From positions 574,661 to 638,660 of the forward strand of contig CAWAOD010000011.1 in assembly GCA_963783575.1 (NCBI GenBank): a stretch of 64,000 nt of DNA. Reading direction: 5' to 3'. This DNA is from an uncultured Spirochaetota bacterium (GTDB lineage: Bacteria; Spirochaetota; Brevinematia; Brevinematales; JAOACQ01). The position numbers were made by a program. Position 1 is the stretch's first letter. Every line of letters starts with the position of its first letter. Positions 53,501 to 56,500 of this stretch are shown one piece after another.

Positions 53501-56500
53501 CTTGTTGATCCTCTCGCTGTGATTATTGATCCGATGCTTGCAACCGGCGGTTCTGCTATAGCTGCCATAGATATTCTTAAAAAGAAAAATTATACCGATA
53601 TAAAAATCATTTCGATTATTGCTGCCCCTGAAGGTTTAAAAGCCGTGGAAAATGTTCATCCTGACGTTGCAATTTTTATAGGCAGCATTGACGAATTCTT
53701 AAACGACAACAAGTATATCATTCCGGGGTTGGGAGATGCCGGTGACAGGCTGTTCGGAACAATATAACCTGGCTTTCACACCTTCTTTCTGAACGATCAG
53801 AAAGAAGGTGTGCCAAGAAAGAATCGCCCCTACGCATTAGCGCCATTTTATGTAAAGTCGTCTTTTAGTATTGACATGTTGTTATTCCATGTTTTATTAA
53901 AGATTTTCTCATTATTAAAGAGCCTCACTCTGCAGTCCGGGCTGCGTTCGGGTCGCAGCCGTCCTGGCTGCGAAATACGAACAGATCGATTTATCATTAT
54001 AGGGGAATAACAACGATTTTAGTACTGAGATTTTTGTTAACCAAATAAAAGCTCAATCAGAAATGGCGCTAATGCTGCGGGGGGCAATTTAGCAGGCGAA
54101 TTTCTTTAATCCTAAGATTGTTGGAAAACTACTTTGTGAAAGAGAATTACTTGTATAAACCTATAAATCAAGTAACAATGGGAGCAGGATGCTCCATAAA
54201 ATCTACCCAAAAGTCAAAAACCAGCCGAACGCTAGTTCGGCAGCGACACGAGATCGCACAGAAATGGCGCTCATGTTGCGGTGAGCAGTTAAACAAACTC
54301 TATCAATAAACATAAGATTATAATTATTAGGAAATTTCTGTTTATTATTAAATTTGATCATTATAAAATATTTTAAGATAGACAATGAAATATCCAGAGT
54401 TACTACTGATATTCCCTTTCAAAATATTCAACCCCATAATATTGAAAAGACTCAAAATCCATAAACATTTTATCGCCAGTGTTCACTAGCCTTTTTATGT
54501 CTTTTTTTATCACCGAATCATAATCTCATTTTTTACTTCTATTTAAGATGCTTACAACTATCTTTTTAATGATTTCCATTTCCTCCAGTTTACTTTCCGC
54601 AATTAGAAGTGTTAATGATGCAAGTCCTTCGTTACTCAAACGTTGAGTACCATTTCTATTATAAAGGCAATGATTTTTGTCAAGAAAATAGAGAAAACAC
54701 GCCGCCGCTATTCTTTTATTACCATCAATAAAAGTGTGATTCTTGACTATAAAATACAGTAGTAAAGCCGCTTTTTCCTCAATCGAAGGATAAAGATCGC
54801 TGTCTCCAAAAGACTGATATATTTGTGCGACAGAACTTCTGAAGCTTTCATCTTTTTCTTTCCCGAAAAGCTCTGAAGTGAATTCTTTTTTCATCTCTTG
54901 CACAATAGAGTAAAACTCCTTATATTCAATAAAGACAGCAGTCCTTTTTGTAATACCGCCGCCGTCAAGGGCTGCATGATCATAATCGTCCAGGATTTGC
55001 AGACCGGTAGAAAAATCAGCTAATAAAGAAACAAGGGATTTAGCCTCATCCAGAGTTTTTACTTGAAGATGAATACTTCTCTCAAGGACATCAATACTGG
55101 ATTTTAATGATTGCAGTTCCTGTTCCCTTTCTTTTAATTTTTTTTCATTCAAAGAATAGCCTTTTATCAGATGATCTTTTAAAATTGCATTTGCCCATAT
55201 ACGGAATTGAGTTCCACGCAGCGATTTTACTCTATAACCCACTGAAATAATAACATCAAGATTATAATATTCAATTCTTCGTTTAACTGTCCGGTTTCCT
55301 TCCTTTCGAACCGTCAAGGATTCCTTGACAGTTGAGTCTTTTATCAATTCGCCTTCTTTAAAACAATTATTTATATGAAGGCTTATGTTTTGTTTTGTTT
55401 GTTCAAAAAGTTCAGCCATTTGAACTTGGGTTAACCAGACAGTATCCTCATCAACTTTTACTTCAACATGAGTTTGTTTGTCCGTTGTTTGATAAATGAT
55501 TATATCATTCATTCCTTTTCCCTTTACCAGAACTTTTATTACTTCGATTCATTTTTGCTCTATTTATATTTTCAATAATAACAAACCTGTGCAGTACATC
55601 AGTACTGCAGGCGACACGAGGTCGCACGGTTCAAGCAACTTTTTTATCATATAAATACTTTTGAAACTCAATAAAAGTCTTCCTGATCCTTTTAACTCCG
55701 CCGAGTATTGTTTCGGTGTCATCAATCGCCTGATATTTTAATTCAAGCAAAGCCGGTAATTTTTCCTGATCCAGCTCTTCAACCCCGGATTCAATGTATT
55801 TTAATAGAACGAATTCCAGAAAGTCTTTTTGTTTATTATCAAGTCCTTTATATATTACAGTCTGAGCCTGCGCTACCCTGCTTTCCCTTGTAATCGGCTG
55901 TATGGCATATGATACATATTCCAGAACATCAAAGATATCGCTTTTTTCAGCATTGATCAACTGCTGCAACGCGGTCAGTTCATCCTTTCCATAACCGGCT
56001 TCCGCGAGTTTATCAAGAAATACTCTCCGGGTTGACGGATCGGACCATATACGGCGAAGTTTATCCTCGTTTTTAAAAAATCCGGGTAATGCGTCATACA
56101 GGTTTTTCAGGAATTCCTCCGATGAAACAGGCTTTCCGTCGGTACTCCAGAAAGAAGTCGCAATCATATGCTGTATTTCTCTTTCTTTACCGTCCCGAAG
56201 TTTGATTTTCAACTTTTGTCTTTTTTCCCTTTCATTTATTTCACCGGTTTCTTTAATATCCCCAGGCTCTTTTATATCATCCGGCATTTCAGGTTCGGGT
56301 TTTGTTACCGGTTCCAACGGCTCACCGTCCCATTCGGGATCGGTAAAATGTTTATATGCATCGACAAAATCATAAATGGTAAAATAATCTTTACCCTCAA
56401 ACAGACGCGTTCCCCTCCCCACAATCTGCTTGAATTCAATCATGGTTTTAACCGGACGCAAAAGGACAATGTTTCTGATATTCCGGGCATCCACCCCTGT

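Follow-up and report, generated by a model that had tools for sequence, protein, structure and literature searches.

The window analysed here, a 64,000-nt stretch of one contig of an uncultured Spirochaetota bacterium, contains two copies of a structured, non-coding repeat that form one convergent pair around a block of genes read from the minus strand (Table 1). The type I restriction-modification (R-M) genes of this block comprise hsdM, together with hsdR and hsdS that each occupy two reading frames. It should be noted that genes were called as longest-ORF picks and that many are split, perhaps by assembly error.

Table 1 Features of the repeat unit, its inverted partner and the enclosed genes, in window positions
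Feature	Position	Strand	Remarks
Upstream hairpin hp1	53777..53812	+	Perfect 16-bp pyrimidine/purine stem, 4-nt loop; belongs to the unit
Linker with purine mirror repeat (53815-53822) of the hp1 3' arm	53813..53826	+	Covaries with hp1
Left terminal inverted repeat	53823..53849	+	5' arm of closing stem P1
Inner stem P2, 5' arm	53876..53888	+	GTTGTTATTC core
Central hairpin a	53931..53946	+	Stem variable, TCC within loop
Central hairpin b	53953..53973	+	Variable complementary stems, loop YTCC
Inner stem P2, 3' arm	54004..54015	+	GAATAACAAC core
Right terminal inverted repeat	54060..54089	+	3' arm of P1; most abundant piece, ~28 copies
Module Y	54096..54170	+	Further repeat; lies beyond the right end of 5 copies
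Single unit from another repeat family, with three hairpins	54172..54258	+	49 matches in the genome
Solo right terminal repeat	54259..54292	+	
Cargo between the two convergent copies	54526..63268	-	RhuM/Fic (PDC-S23), type I R-M, HerA-like ATPase, 247-aa unknown protein, RayT-like gene
Third Y1 gene, RayT-like	57957..58611	-	Single copy; HUH and Y motifs; one frameshift near 58450; start and stop overlap hsdS and hsdR
Second full element copy, inverted	63520..63790	-	Right repeat 63520-63557, hairpin b 63644-63665, hairpin a 63673-63685, left repeat 63768-63790
Linker, hp1 (63806-63842) and hp0 (63852-63870) of the second copy	63791..63870	-	Outer side of the pair

The repeat unit is larger than the first-pass annotation had reported. 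The extent given there, 53790..54088, starts within the loop of hp1, which is part of the unit, and the repeated DNA spans 53770-54275. A full unit begins with the hairpin hp0, after which come hp1, the linker with the mirror repeat, a core of 275 bp and accessory modules (X or Y, and a three-hairpin unit). The core is made up of imperfect 28-bp terminal inverted repeats that pair as the closing stem, a 12-bp inner stem and two central hairpins with YTCC loops. Hp1 was caught in 13 of 17 copies, and in these 13 the mirror match between hp1 and the linker is 8-12 nt; it was longer than the direct match in 10 copies and equal to it in 3. The mirror-repeat linker covaries with hp1 both between subfamilies and between species, and the resulting Py-Pu-Pu layout is predicted from the sequence to be able to form a triplex. 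In the three-hairpin unit, the second hairpin resembles a terminator on the minus strand.

A BLASTN search of window positions 53770-54110 against the genome returned dozens of matches, and an nhmmer profile returned 63 at E ≤ 0.01, a count that includes opposite-strand echoes. After merging, 33 elements remained at a score of at least 40, and 40 at a score of at least 15, confirming the existence of the family. Nineteen copies are full length and uninterrupted and about seven are interrupted; the rest are fragments. The pairwise identity of the 19 full copies ranges from 48 to 94% (median 62% on the alignment), and clear subfamilies can be distinguished. The element has no coding capacity, and its copies are extragenic, numerous and dispersed. 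It is also present in the sister genome, the only other genome of the genus searched. A pattern scan over the genomes of 185,579 species found the element ends only in this sister genome, apart from one 24-nt match of a size expected by chance, and a hairpin-plus-linker pattern run over genome contigs retrieved the sister genome alone. Among metagenome contigs, a 25-nt right-end pattern gave no match; a looser two-anchor pattern gave 49 loci, none of which fit the family profile, and all are thus attributed to chance. As noted earlier, no Rfam family is reached at its gathering score, the best hit in Rfam 15 being 23.5 bits against a cutoff of 40. The element has multiplied within one genus.

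The window copy folds to -127 kcal/mol as RNA (z -8.6) and to -74 kcal/mol as DNA (z -10.5). The proposed fold, kept by compensatory changes, is real. Over 37 named pairs in an alignment of the 19 full copies, pairing is kept in 92.4% of 700 cells, compared with 35.0-56.4% in controls in which the partners were slid, and double changes affect 11 pairs and 40 cells, compared with 1-7 pairs and 1-18 cells in the slid controls. None of 500 shuffles reached the observed percent paired, double-change pairs, double-change cells or covariation score, and 3 of 500 reached the observed count of further pair types. Hairpin a was left out of the pair count, the subfamilies being five columns out of register on the MAFFT alignment. 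Covariation lies mainly in one central hairpin (seven of its eight pairs). In the closing and inner stems most positions do not vary within the genome, but both arms are changed in the sister genome. Hairpin b has 13 distinct complementary stems among the 19 copies, and three more in the sister genome, all beneath a constant YTCC loop, in agreement with the earlier remark that one hairpin has different complementary arms in different copies. Constant loop motifs, two or three in number (YTCC, or GGA on the other strand), are carried by variable stems; the repeat keeps its pairing while its sequence drifts. The claim that G-U pairs occur on one strand only does not hold. In pair sets neutral between the strands, G:T and A:C cells stand at 75:60 (union) and 13:13 (intersection), and folding copy by copy gives 11 of 19 a better energy on the + strand, the difference averaging -0.1 kcal/mol.

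Three insertion-sequence (IS) families use fixed sites within the element. In three of three copies, an IS110-family IS has entered the right repeat at CTGCG^GGGG, a site that equals the window junction 54079/54080; the IS parts of these copies are 99.4-99.6% identical and the element parts 83% identical. A 501-aa IS1182-family IS adjoins an element copy in six of seven cases; junctions in the hp1 loop were read in four, and half of the hp1 hairpin was found beyond the IS. In two copies, the interval between hairpins a and b holds a 494-aa IS or its miniature form. The use of fixed points by three families marks the element as a DNA target that is old and can be recognised. In serving as a precise landing site for IS110-family and IS1182-family IS, it resembles proteobacterial REPs, which are targeted by IS110-family elements with bridge RNA according to the parts used here of two sources (PMC11208160; ISPpu10 preprint 10.64898/2026.03.19.712850). 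However, this comparison concerns the parasites of the element and not the element itself.

Neighbouring copies are mostly convergent. Within 10 kb, ten neighbour pairs were found, of which eight are convergent, none divergent and two tandem (binomial P = 4e-4 against 25%); with weak matches added, the counts are eight, none and five (P = 0.006). Five loci of the sister genome, with weak matches counted, comprise two convergent, no divergent and three tandem pairs. The right ends of paired copies point inward, towards one another. Of the 30 cargo proteins submitted to PADLOC, 14 match a defence family (E ≤ 1e-5), and these are spread over five of the eight pairs, carrying Dsr1 (twice), a Ppl/GajA-like protein with a type II methyltransferase, PDC-M30A, and type I R-M with HerA and PDC-S23. 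Among the three pairs with no PADLOC match, two were tested, and the third, which holds a Y1 gene only, was left out. The pairs of the sister genome enclose PDC-S06 with a type II methyltransferase, and an HNH endonuclease. A comparison of the cargos revealed no recombinase common to them. Convergent pairs enclose unrelated accessory gene blocks, mostly for defence. For solitary copies, defence genes were found on the right side at 7 and on the left side at 5 of 14 loci (5 and 2 without ankyrin-only and generic-domain matches), which is a trend only.

The closest relative of an arm is not the other arm of its pair. The mutual ranks of paired arms among 18 copies (8/2, 9/12 and 6/6) speak against sister copies, and one pair joins copies of two subfamilies. 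Both results argue against the simple insertion of ready-made two-armed units.

We tentatively favour the explanation that the element belongs with the non-autonomous foldback DNA repeats, such as MITEs, REPINs and mobile insertion cassettes, that it is constrained as folded DNA and not as a one-strand RNA, and that it serves as cassette ends, although our confidence in it falls a little short of even. Two units would form the ends of a composite element that carries a cassette, or would be arms through which cassettes are exchanged by recombination. The units may be recognised as folded single-stranded or extruded DNA by an enzyme supplied in trans, for which the single-copy RayT-like HUH gene inside the window's pair is a candidate only. 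The dispersal of the copies is what points to mobility, past or present, since no target-site duplication was recognised by eye in the flanks of 20 copies (whose outer end may be hp0, hp1 or the left repeat) and no empty site was seen. At the pair near 326 kb of contig C3, protein synteny showed the left side kept in seven relatives and the right-side genes elsewhere, and the sister contig ends there. When the DNA of window positions 52800-55600 was compared with the sister genome, only the repeat modules matched and the flanking genes did not. No transposase with matching ends was found in the genome or in any collection searched, nor were the element ends found in any other context within the genome, such as a parent IS.

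In MITE composites and mobile insertion cassettes, two copies or ends enclose passenger genes. The element resembles MITEs in being small and non-coding, with terminal inverted repeats, no transposase and many dispersed copies, and it resembles such composites in that passenger genes lacking a transposase lie between two inverted ends (eight pairs here and, with weak matches counted, two in the sister genome). It differs from MITEs in that no parent IS with matching ends was found, that no target duplication was recognised in the flanks and that its internal hairpins covary, and from the composites in that the arms of a pair come from different sublineages and are strictly oriented with the right ends inward. 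Integron attC sites, which are 57-141 nt long and lie in a single orientation beside an integrase, are recognised more by their folded single-strand structure than by sequence, and their cassettes often carry defence genes. By analogy, the element may be a structure-defined recombination site that bounds defence-rich cassettes. However, the arms exceed attC sites in size and are inverted, their surroundings showed no integron integrase, and attC core-site motifs compared by eye with the element did not fit. R-M genes lying between long inverted repeats without a transposase have also been described (Furuta, Abe, Kobayashi 2010, PMC2853133), and in the part of that study used here the repeats are 26-65 bp long and unique to each unit, with 8-bp target duplications in two cases. 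The pairs reported here are similar to those units, as far as this part describes them, in that defence genes without a mobility gene lie between inverted repeats (type I R-M in the window's pair, type II in another), and different in that the arms belong to a multi-copy, 275-bp structured family common to unrelated cargos.

The first-pass annotation had read the element as a repeat with the layout of REP-associated Y1 transposases. In this version, which we regard as unlikely, the element would be the cognate repeat of a Y1 (HUH) transposase, excised and re-inserted as a single-stranded hairpin by either the IS200-like genes beside its copies or the window's RayT-like gene. The general part of that reading, a non-coding, structure-constrained, REP/REPIN-like repeat acting at the DNA level, is supported. 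Compensatory changes without strand bias suit a DNA hairpin substrate, such changes being called 'common' in DNA hairpin repeats in the part used here of the REPIN study of Bertels and Rainey (2011, PMC3116915). As that part describes REPINs, they are also extragenic, dispersed hairpin doublets of inverted conserved ends, restricted to and inherited with a lineage, and their spacer is constrained by length and pairing, all of which applies to the element. However, REPINs measure about 100 bp and occur as hundreds of near-identical copies, whereas the element measures 275 bp, has nested stems and side hairpins and occurs as tens of diverged copies. Its inverted 28-bp ends pair but are not conserved palindromes of the REP type, and its interior forms several helices.

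The specific link to the two IS200-like Y1 genes, g00151 (C3) and g00529 (C4), is weak. Of the 121 positions of the Y1_Tnp profile, both cover only 12-82, and both genes are broken: the frame of the C3 gene is broken by a 37-nt palindrome, the part with the catalytic tyrosine continuing in another frame, and the C4 gene has a 1.35-kb insertion at the equivalent place. Both genes do lie beside element copies, and g00151 lies between inverted copies, its two flanking right ends being 93% complementary over 29 nt. However, the two loci are one duplicated IS200-like unit, 87-90% identical, and the duplication takes in the element fragment, so they represent one association and not two. The inverted arrangement at g00151 is one that most neighbouring copies show (8 of 10 pairs), and the other pairs hold defence genes and not transposases. 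Furthermore, the Y1 family has its own upstream hairpin, which is common to its closest relative in another genus, occurs three times in the genome, always at Y1 loci, and is absent from the 275-nt element. The sister genome (57% complete) has the element but no Y1 match.

These two are not the only Y1 genes of the genome, as had been stated, since the RayT-like gene in the window is a third. In favour of this gene as the cognate enzyme, it is single-copy, as in the REPIN-RAYT system, carries HUH and Y motifs, lies within the convergent pair, and has relatives that one source names 'REP element-mobilizing transposase RayT'. Against it, the gene is frameshifted, scores 53.8 bits against a cutoff of 80, overlaps hsdS and hsdR, and has no flanking repeat, the nearest element copies lying at distances of 3.9 and 5.0 kb. 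In two other genera, its orthologues sit tightly among ordinary genes and leave no intergenic space. Unlike REPINs, copies of the element pair around cargo genes.

Less probable in our view is that the core, or the whole composite, is a structured RNA transcribed from one strand as a small RNA or an untranslated-region element. For example, the GGA hairpin loops on the strand chosen in the first-pass annotation could bind CsrA, or the TCC loops of the other strand could pair with ribosome-binding sites. The conserved loop motifs on variable stems fit such a role and TCC is strand-specific, RNAalifold prefers the former strand by 3.5-8 kcal/mol, a csrA gene is present in the genome, and the neighbouring three-hairpin family has CAGGATG-type loops, a motif which we take to be a CsrA site, in the same sense as the GGA loops of long variant copies. 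However, G:U cells do not exceed A:C cells in the strand-neutral sets and single copies show no energy bias, the ends of the unit have no conserved promoter or terminator, the orientation to the flanking genes is not fixed (on crude ORF picks), no Rfam family matches, and a trans-acting RNA leaves the convergent pairing around cargo unexplained. The idea of a CsrA sponge found no further support beyond the presence of csrA and was set aside.

It is similarly improbable that the element is an old, immobile repeat whose palindromes are kept paired by 'correction' through template switching during replication and not by selection. Copies would then border islands only because such places tolerate insertions and foreign DNA, and because deletion removes gene blocks that lie between direct repeats. 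The copies are indeed old and diverged and riddled with IS insertions, and wobble-type mismatches are symmetric between the strands. The palindrome in the C3 Y1 gene runs into the flanking coding sequence as a perfect inverted repeat with 22-bp arms, which is the footprint expected of template switching. However, deletion between direct repeats accounts for the few tandem pairs and not for eight convergent against no divergent ones. Two species whose coding DNA has no DNA-level match in the stretch tested still share the loops, the linker mirror repeat and the order of the modules, and 16 stem variants of hairpin b with a constant loop would need many concerted events. If this passive explanation were true, the family would be an ordinary lineage-specific repeat with unusually clear maintenance of palindromes.

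Returning to the element as cassette ends, what is new here is the upstream 16-bp hairpin with its covarying mirror repeat, the convergent pairing around defence cargo and the fixed-point IS insertions. With dozens of diverged copies in two species, clear subfamilies and three IS families at fixed points, the family is a good test bed, in which natural variants allow predictions of structure and function, and the targeting rules of IS110-type elements, to be checked. If the arms mediate the capture or exchange of cassettes, this would explain how Dsr1, type I and type II R-M, HerA and Gabija-like systems come to occupy interchangeable sites without an integrase or transposase of their own. It would also add a mechanism that recognises the shape of DNA, namely its nested stems, its constant loops and a purine mirror repeat that covaries. 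In a broader form of this proposal, which is speculative and which we consider doubtful, the element would belong to a widespread, undescribed class of large, structure-specified arms, inward-facing pairs of which would capture, hold and swap defence cassettes as folded single-stranded DNA, with the exchange driven by a trans-acting HUH (RayT-like) or other enzyme. Such arms would be akin to integron attC sites, but about 275 nt long, inverted and equipped with a hairpin module predicted to be triplex-capable. If it held for a general class, this proposal would provide a general route of defence-gene exchange.

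No convincing ORF was found in 53790-54088, and the interval matched no Rfam family at the gathering score (best 23.5 bits against 40), which agrees with the first-pass annotation. The window copy folds more stably than shuffled sequences both as RNA (-127 kcal/mol, z = -8.6) and as DNA (-74 kcal/mol, z = -10.5), with none of 100 shuffles equally stable in either case. The repeat is present in the interval first annotated, but the repeated DNA is broader, spanning 53770-54275, and a start at 53790 splits the hairpin hp1 in its loop because the unit begins upstream.

We used the orientation opposite to that of the first-pass annotation, with the window copy counted as "+". 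The order of modules within the unit is fixed (see table). Where hp1 differs, from subfamily to subfamily or from one of the two species to the other, the mirror copy in the linker differs with it. Among the 17 copies scanned, the mirror match exceeded the direct match in 10 of the 13 whose hp1 was caught by the script and tied with it in three, and the mean mirror match over all 17 was 8.4 nt, compared with 3.2 nt in shuffled tails. Along one strand, hp1 supplies a pyrimidine arm followed by a purine arm, and the linker repeats the purine run in mirror order. This is the layout of an intramolecular triplex, and such a triplex may form here. Module X, ~85 nt long, is a foldback in its own right whose long arms (CTTCGGTCACTGAGTAG...) pair perfectly, for example at C6 99860-99950 and window 63300-63519. 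It lies 3' of the right end in at least five copies, and module Y occupies that place in five others. At two loci of the sister genome G001 (L009 1540-1700 and L042 1540-1760), hp1 and its linker precede closed multi-helix elements of another family (closing stems CCCTCCGGATGAAA/TTTTCATCCGGAGGG and the like), so the upstream hairpin module is common to several foldback families. Another repeat family of the source genome is larger: its 21-nt core gave 49 matches with 4 mismatches or fewer. The units of 80-105 nt contain three hairpins and often stand in tandem arrays of 2-4. The first hairpin has a CAGGATG-type loop, and the second resembles an intrinsic terminator on the opposite strand.

Features of the element, its neighbourhood and related loci. 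Positions without a contig (C) or fetched-locus (L) name are in the window; PDC-..., Dsr1 and Ppl/GajA are PADLOC defence families.
Feature	Position	Strand	Remarks
Uracil phosphoribosyltransferase gene	53147-53767	+	
Gap holding 53790-54088			758 nt, between the uracil phosphoribosyltransferase and RhuM/Fic-type genes
RhuM/Fic-type gene	54526-55512	-	
hp0			first part of unit; small hairpin, loop able to pair instead with next six bases
hp1	53777-53812	+	perfect 15-17-bp pyrimidine/purine hairpin
Linker after hp1			contains 8-12-nt mirror copy of hp1 purine arm
Closing stem P1	53823-53849 with 54060-54089		imperfect 28-bp terminal inverted repeats
Inner stem P2	53876-53888 with 54004-54015		12 bp
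Central hairpin a	53931-53946		loop with YTCC
Central hairpin b	53953-53973		loop with YTCC
Right-arm hairpin			within core; weaker
Accessory modules			after core in many copies; module X or Y plus unit of the separate three-hairpin family
Three-hairpin family sites	54172-54258; C9 291129-291400; C16 9454-9700; C5 398898-399100; C6 149286-149470		
Third Y1 gene, RayT-like	57957-58611	-	HUH motif DHLHG; YIKSNPENW motif
Split defence genes	55631-57960; 58611-59815; L058 3407-7712; L075 9913-12300		
Pair	C6 99.8-105 kb		Dsr1
Pair	C4 177.7-185.3 kb		Dsr1 broken by an IS plus Y1 unit
Pair	C11 234-242 kb		Ppl/GajA-like ATPase and type II methyltransferase
Pair	C3 327-334 kb		PDC-M30A-like protein with radical-SAM and HIT proteins
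Pair	in window (C11)		PDC-S23 (RhuM/Fic), type I restriction-modification system, HerA-like ATPase
Pair	C4 92-95.6 kb		proteins without matches
Pair	C16 208.6-211.5 kb		proteins without matches
Pair	C3 120.6-121.9 kb		Y1 gene only
IS110-family IS copies	C5 69226-70646; C13 279741-281161; C16 about 220249-221669		loci L080, L090

The element is a dispersed, non-coding, lineage-restricted repeat. BLASTN and an nhmmer profile made from 15 copies placed it on 12 of the 18 contigs of the source genome. The profile gave 63 hits at E <= 0.01, counting weaker opposite-strand echoes of palindromic parts; these merged into 33 elements with a score cutoff of 40, or 40 elements with a cutoff of 15. Nineteen copies are full-length and uninterrupted, and about seven more are full but broken by insertions. 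The 19 full copies are 48-94% identical end to end (median 62%, MAFFT alignment), local BLAST identity to the window copy is 69-89%, and three subfamilies are distinguished chiefly by the central hairpins. Some match was found in 7 of 41 genomes of the lineage; the core occurs only in the source genome and in G001, the sole further genome of its genus (57% complete, at least eight copies, several at contig ends), and the remaining matching genomes share only the upstream hairpin, over at most 60 nt. A search of the genomes of 185,579 species for the exact 23-nt right-end pattern recovered G001 only, plus one 24-nt hit of chance size (~0.3 such matches expected in the collection by our own estimate). 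This lone exact match to the right terminal repeat lies on a contig of a Nitrospirota MAG (L013 451-474), with no other element parts around it. Two metagenome scans for the element gave no true match.

Pairing within the element is maintained through double changes. A 37-pair structure (P1, P2 and hairpin b) was counted on the 19-copy alignment, with partners slid by 1-3 columns and 500 shuffles as controls. Paired cells made up 92.4% of 700, compared with 35.0-56.4% in the slid controls, and both sides had changed in 11 pairs and 40 cells, compared with 1-7 pairs and 1-18 cells. In percent paired, covariation score and the numbers of double-change pairs and of double-change cells, none of the 500 shuffles reached the value of the alignment; in the number of further pair types, three did. 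Shared descent inflates the shuffle control but not the slid controls. Covariation was mostly in hairpin b (7/8 pairs), for which a loop-anchored search found 13 different fully complementary stems in the 19 source-genome copies and three more in three copies of G001. Every such loop contains TCC, and one further copy forms hairpin b with a different loop. The stem of hairpin a varies likewise; it was left out of the count because the subfamilies are five columns out of register on the alignment. P1 and P2 are nearly invariant within the source genome, and the middle of P1 in G001 is changed on both arms (for example, GCGCC/GGCGC to GCACC/GGTGC or TTACC/GGTAA). Given the pair counts, the stem variants of hairpin b and these two-arm changes, the seven-helix fold described earlier is broadly right: support is good for its closing stem, its inner stem and both central hairpins, and weaker for the remaining short helices.

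Many copies adjoin transposase genes because insertion sequences target the element, and three IS families use it at fixed points. A 501-aa IS1182-family IS adjoins the element in six of its seven copies; the junction was read in the hp1 loop in four, and the second hairpin half was found beyond the IS in one. Two copies of the element carry, between hairpins a and b, a second IS of that family (494 aa; ~40 copies) or a miniature derived from it. All three copies of an IS110-family IS (356-aa transposase with DEDD and Transposase_20 domains) interrupt the right terminal repeat exactly at CTGCG^GGGG. The IS parts are 99.4-99.6% identical, compared with 83% for the two full elements interrupted, so these insertions were independent and site-specific. 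According to PMC11208160 and a preprint (10.64898/2026.03.19.712850), IS110 elements are known to target conserved intergenic repeats, and our case is a natural repeat-targeted IS110 insertion with a known target. Another IS (ends GGAAATG.../...CATTTCC) interrupts one element at C15 201753-204256, with an apparent short duplication ATAATT; in a different copy, left of C4 177475, it adjoins hp1 at its right arm.

Neighbouring copies form inward-facing pairs whose right ends face variable gene blocks. Among all neighbouring copies <=10 kb apart, 8 of 10 pairs were convergent (right ends inward, hp1 outward), two were tandem and none was divergent (binomial P = 4e-4 for at least 8 of 10 at 25%). 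With weak hits included, the 13 pairs comprised eight convergent, five tandem and no divergent ones (P = 0.006). The two copies of the window, 53815-54090 (+) and 63527-63803 (-), form one convergent pair. The enclosed DNA (1.3-9.4 kb) is different in each pair, and no recombinase common to the cargos was found across the pairs. Excluding IS and Y1 genes and two of the cargo proteins in the window, 30 cargo proteins were given to PADLOC, and 14 of them, in five of the eight pairs, matched a defence family at E <= 1e-5. At five fetched loci of G001, weak hits counted, two pairs were convergent, three tandem and none divergent, and the convergent ones enclose PDC-S06 (AAA_13) with a type II methyltransferase in one case and an HNH endonuclease in the other. 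For the 14 solitary copies, PADLOC matches among the closest two non-IS genes were found on the right-end side at seven loci and on the hp1 side at five, or at five versus two without ankyrin-only and generic methyltransferase/HTH matches, no more than a trend towards defence genes on the right-end side. The hp1 side holds mostly housekeeping genes (asd, tyrS, ychF, tsaB, rsmD). With gene calls made as longest-ORF picks, many defence genes of both genomes (hsdR, hsdS, Dsr1, PDC-S06) lie in two or three adjacent frames, reflecting either widespread decay or homopolymer errors in the assemblies.

We tentatively favour the reading that the element is a DNA-level foldback unit. Two units would bound a cassette-carrying block, as its ends or as recombination arms; a trans-acting enzyme would recognise their folded form, and solitary copies would be empty or one-sided sites. 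Against this reading, no target duplication was found in the copy flanks searched, no empty site at the loci compared, and no parent transposase in the genomes and collections searched. The arms of a pair are also not sister copies, or even nearest relatives (ranks among 18: 8/2, 9/12 and 6/6), and in one pair the copies come from two subfamilies.

It is rather unlikely that the element is instead served by an HUH enzyme, as in the Y1 partnership proposed earlier, here extended to a RayT-like gene in the window. The first-pass annotation named two Y1 genes, g00151 on C3 and g00529 on C4, as the only ones in the genome and both beside copies. The two loci are 87-90% identical across the gene, its flanks and an adjoining 129-nt element piece, and count as one association later duplicated. 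Of the 121 positions of the Y1_Tnp profile, both genes cover only 12-82. The C3 gene has a 37-nt palindrome within its reading frame, with the catalytic-tyrosine part (YILSNR...) then in another frame, and its C-terminal piece scores 23.9 bits against the NCBIfam REP-associated tyrosine transposase model, well under the 80-bit cutoff; the C4 gene carries a 1.35-kb insertion with a DDE transposase at the same place. The C3 palindrome reaches into the flanking coding sequence (L016 3274-3322, C3 about 121273-121321), and the extended form, a perfect inverted repeat with 22-nt arms, looks like a template-switch footprint, not transposition. This IS200-like Y1 family has its own perfect palindrome directly upstream of the start codon, which is not part of the element. 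It occurs three times in the genome, always at the C3/C4 Y1 loci, and the closest homologue of these genes, from another genus and 38-41% identical, is preceded by a hairpin that its stem resembles. A third Y1 gene, single-copy and undetected by the whole-genome profile search at E <= 0.01, is the RayT-like gene. It scores 53.8 bits against the same NCBIfam model (cutoff 80), its large family is labelled "REP element-mobilizing transposase RayT" by one source, and it has orthologues in three genomes of the family (29-34% identity). One frameshift in a run of four A breaks the gene and may be real or an assembly error. The gene lies inside a type I restriction-modification operon, its start overlapping the hsdS stop and its stop the hsdR start; thus wedged, it is not repeat-flanked, and its orthologues likewise lack flanking repeats. 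The earlier interpretation is thus supported in part: the DNA-level REP-like element stands, and the Y1 partnership is weak.

A role of the element as RNA appears improbable. Because the loops are asymmetric (TCC on one strand, GGA on the other), they may be read to some extent in a strand-specific way. The pairing itself has no strand bias. Per-copy minimum free energy was better on the + strand in 11 of 19 copies (mean difference -0.1 kcal/mol), and RNAalifold modestly favoured the strand annotated first (-31.0 versus -23.0 for all 19 copies, -60.7 versus -57.2 in subfamily 1, -42.8 versus -38.3 in subfamily 2), a comparison biased by the pairs chosen in each run. The G-U pairs had been placed on one strand only, which does not hold: pooling the pairs predicted for the two strands, we counted 75 G:T and 60 A:C cells (24 versus 22 columns), and the pairs common to both predictions gave 13 of each. 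Wobble-type mismatches are therefore about equal in both senses, as expected from a constraint on DNA pairing, or from none, and unlike a one-strand RNA. We also doubt that the element is a passive relic whose palindromes are kept paired by template switching.

As a possible arm of cassette-carrying blocks, the reading we favour, the element is like integron attC sites, which are structure-defined cassette sites with an integrase, and differs from them in size, orientation and the absent integrase. It has the descriptive features of MITEs, without a demonstrated target duplication or parent IS. REPINs, as described in PMC3116915, are similar as extragenic hairpin doublets with compensatory changes, but the element lacks their defining REP palindromes, flanked RAYT and large near-identical population. 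The pair layout matches that of mobile insertion cassettes and that of the transposon-like restriction-modification units between long inverted repeats described in PMC2853133; unlike in both, the arms here belong to a common, multi-copy, structured family. Among the papers searched on MITE-flanked defence cassettes, REPIN/RAYT, IS110 with REP targets, mobile forms of restriction-modification and mobile insertion cassettes, we saw none that describes this family or reports defence cassettes of spirochaetes between structured multi-copy arms. The element is noteworthy for the way its copies pair around defence cassettes and for a hairpin module capable of forming a triplex.
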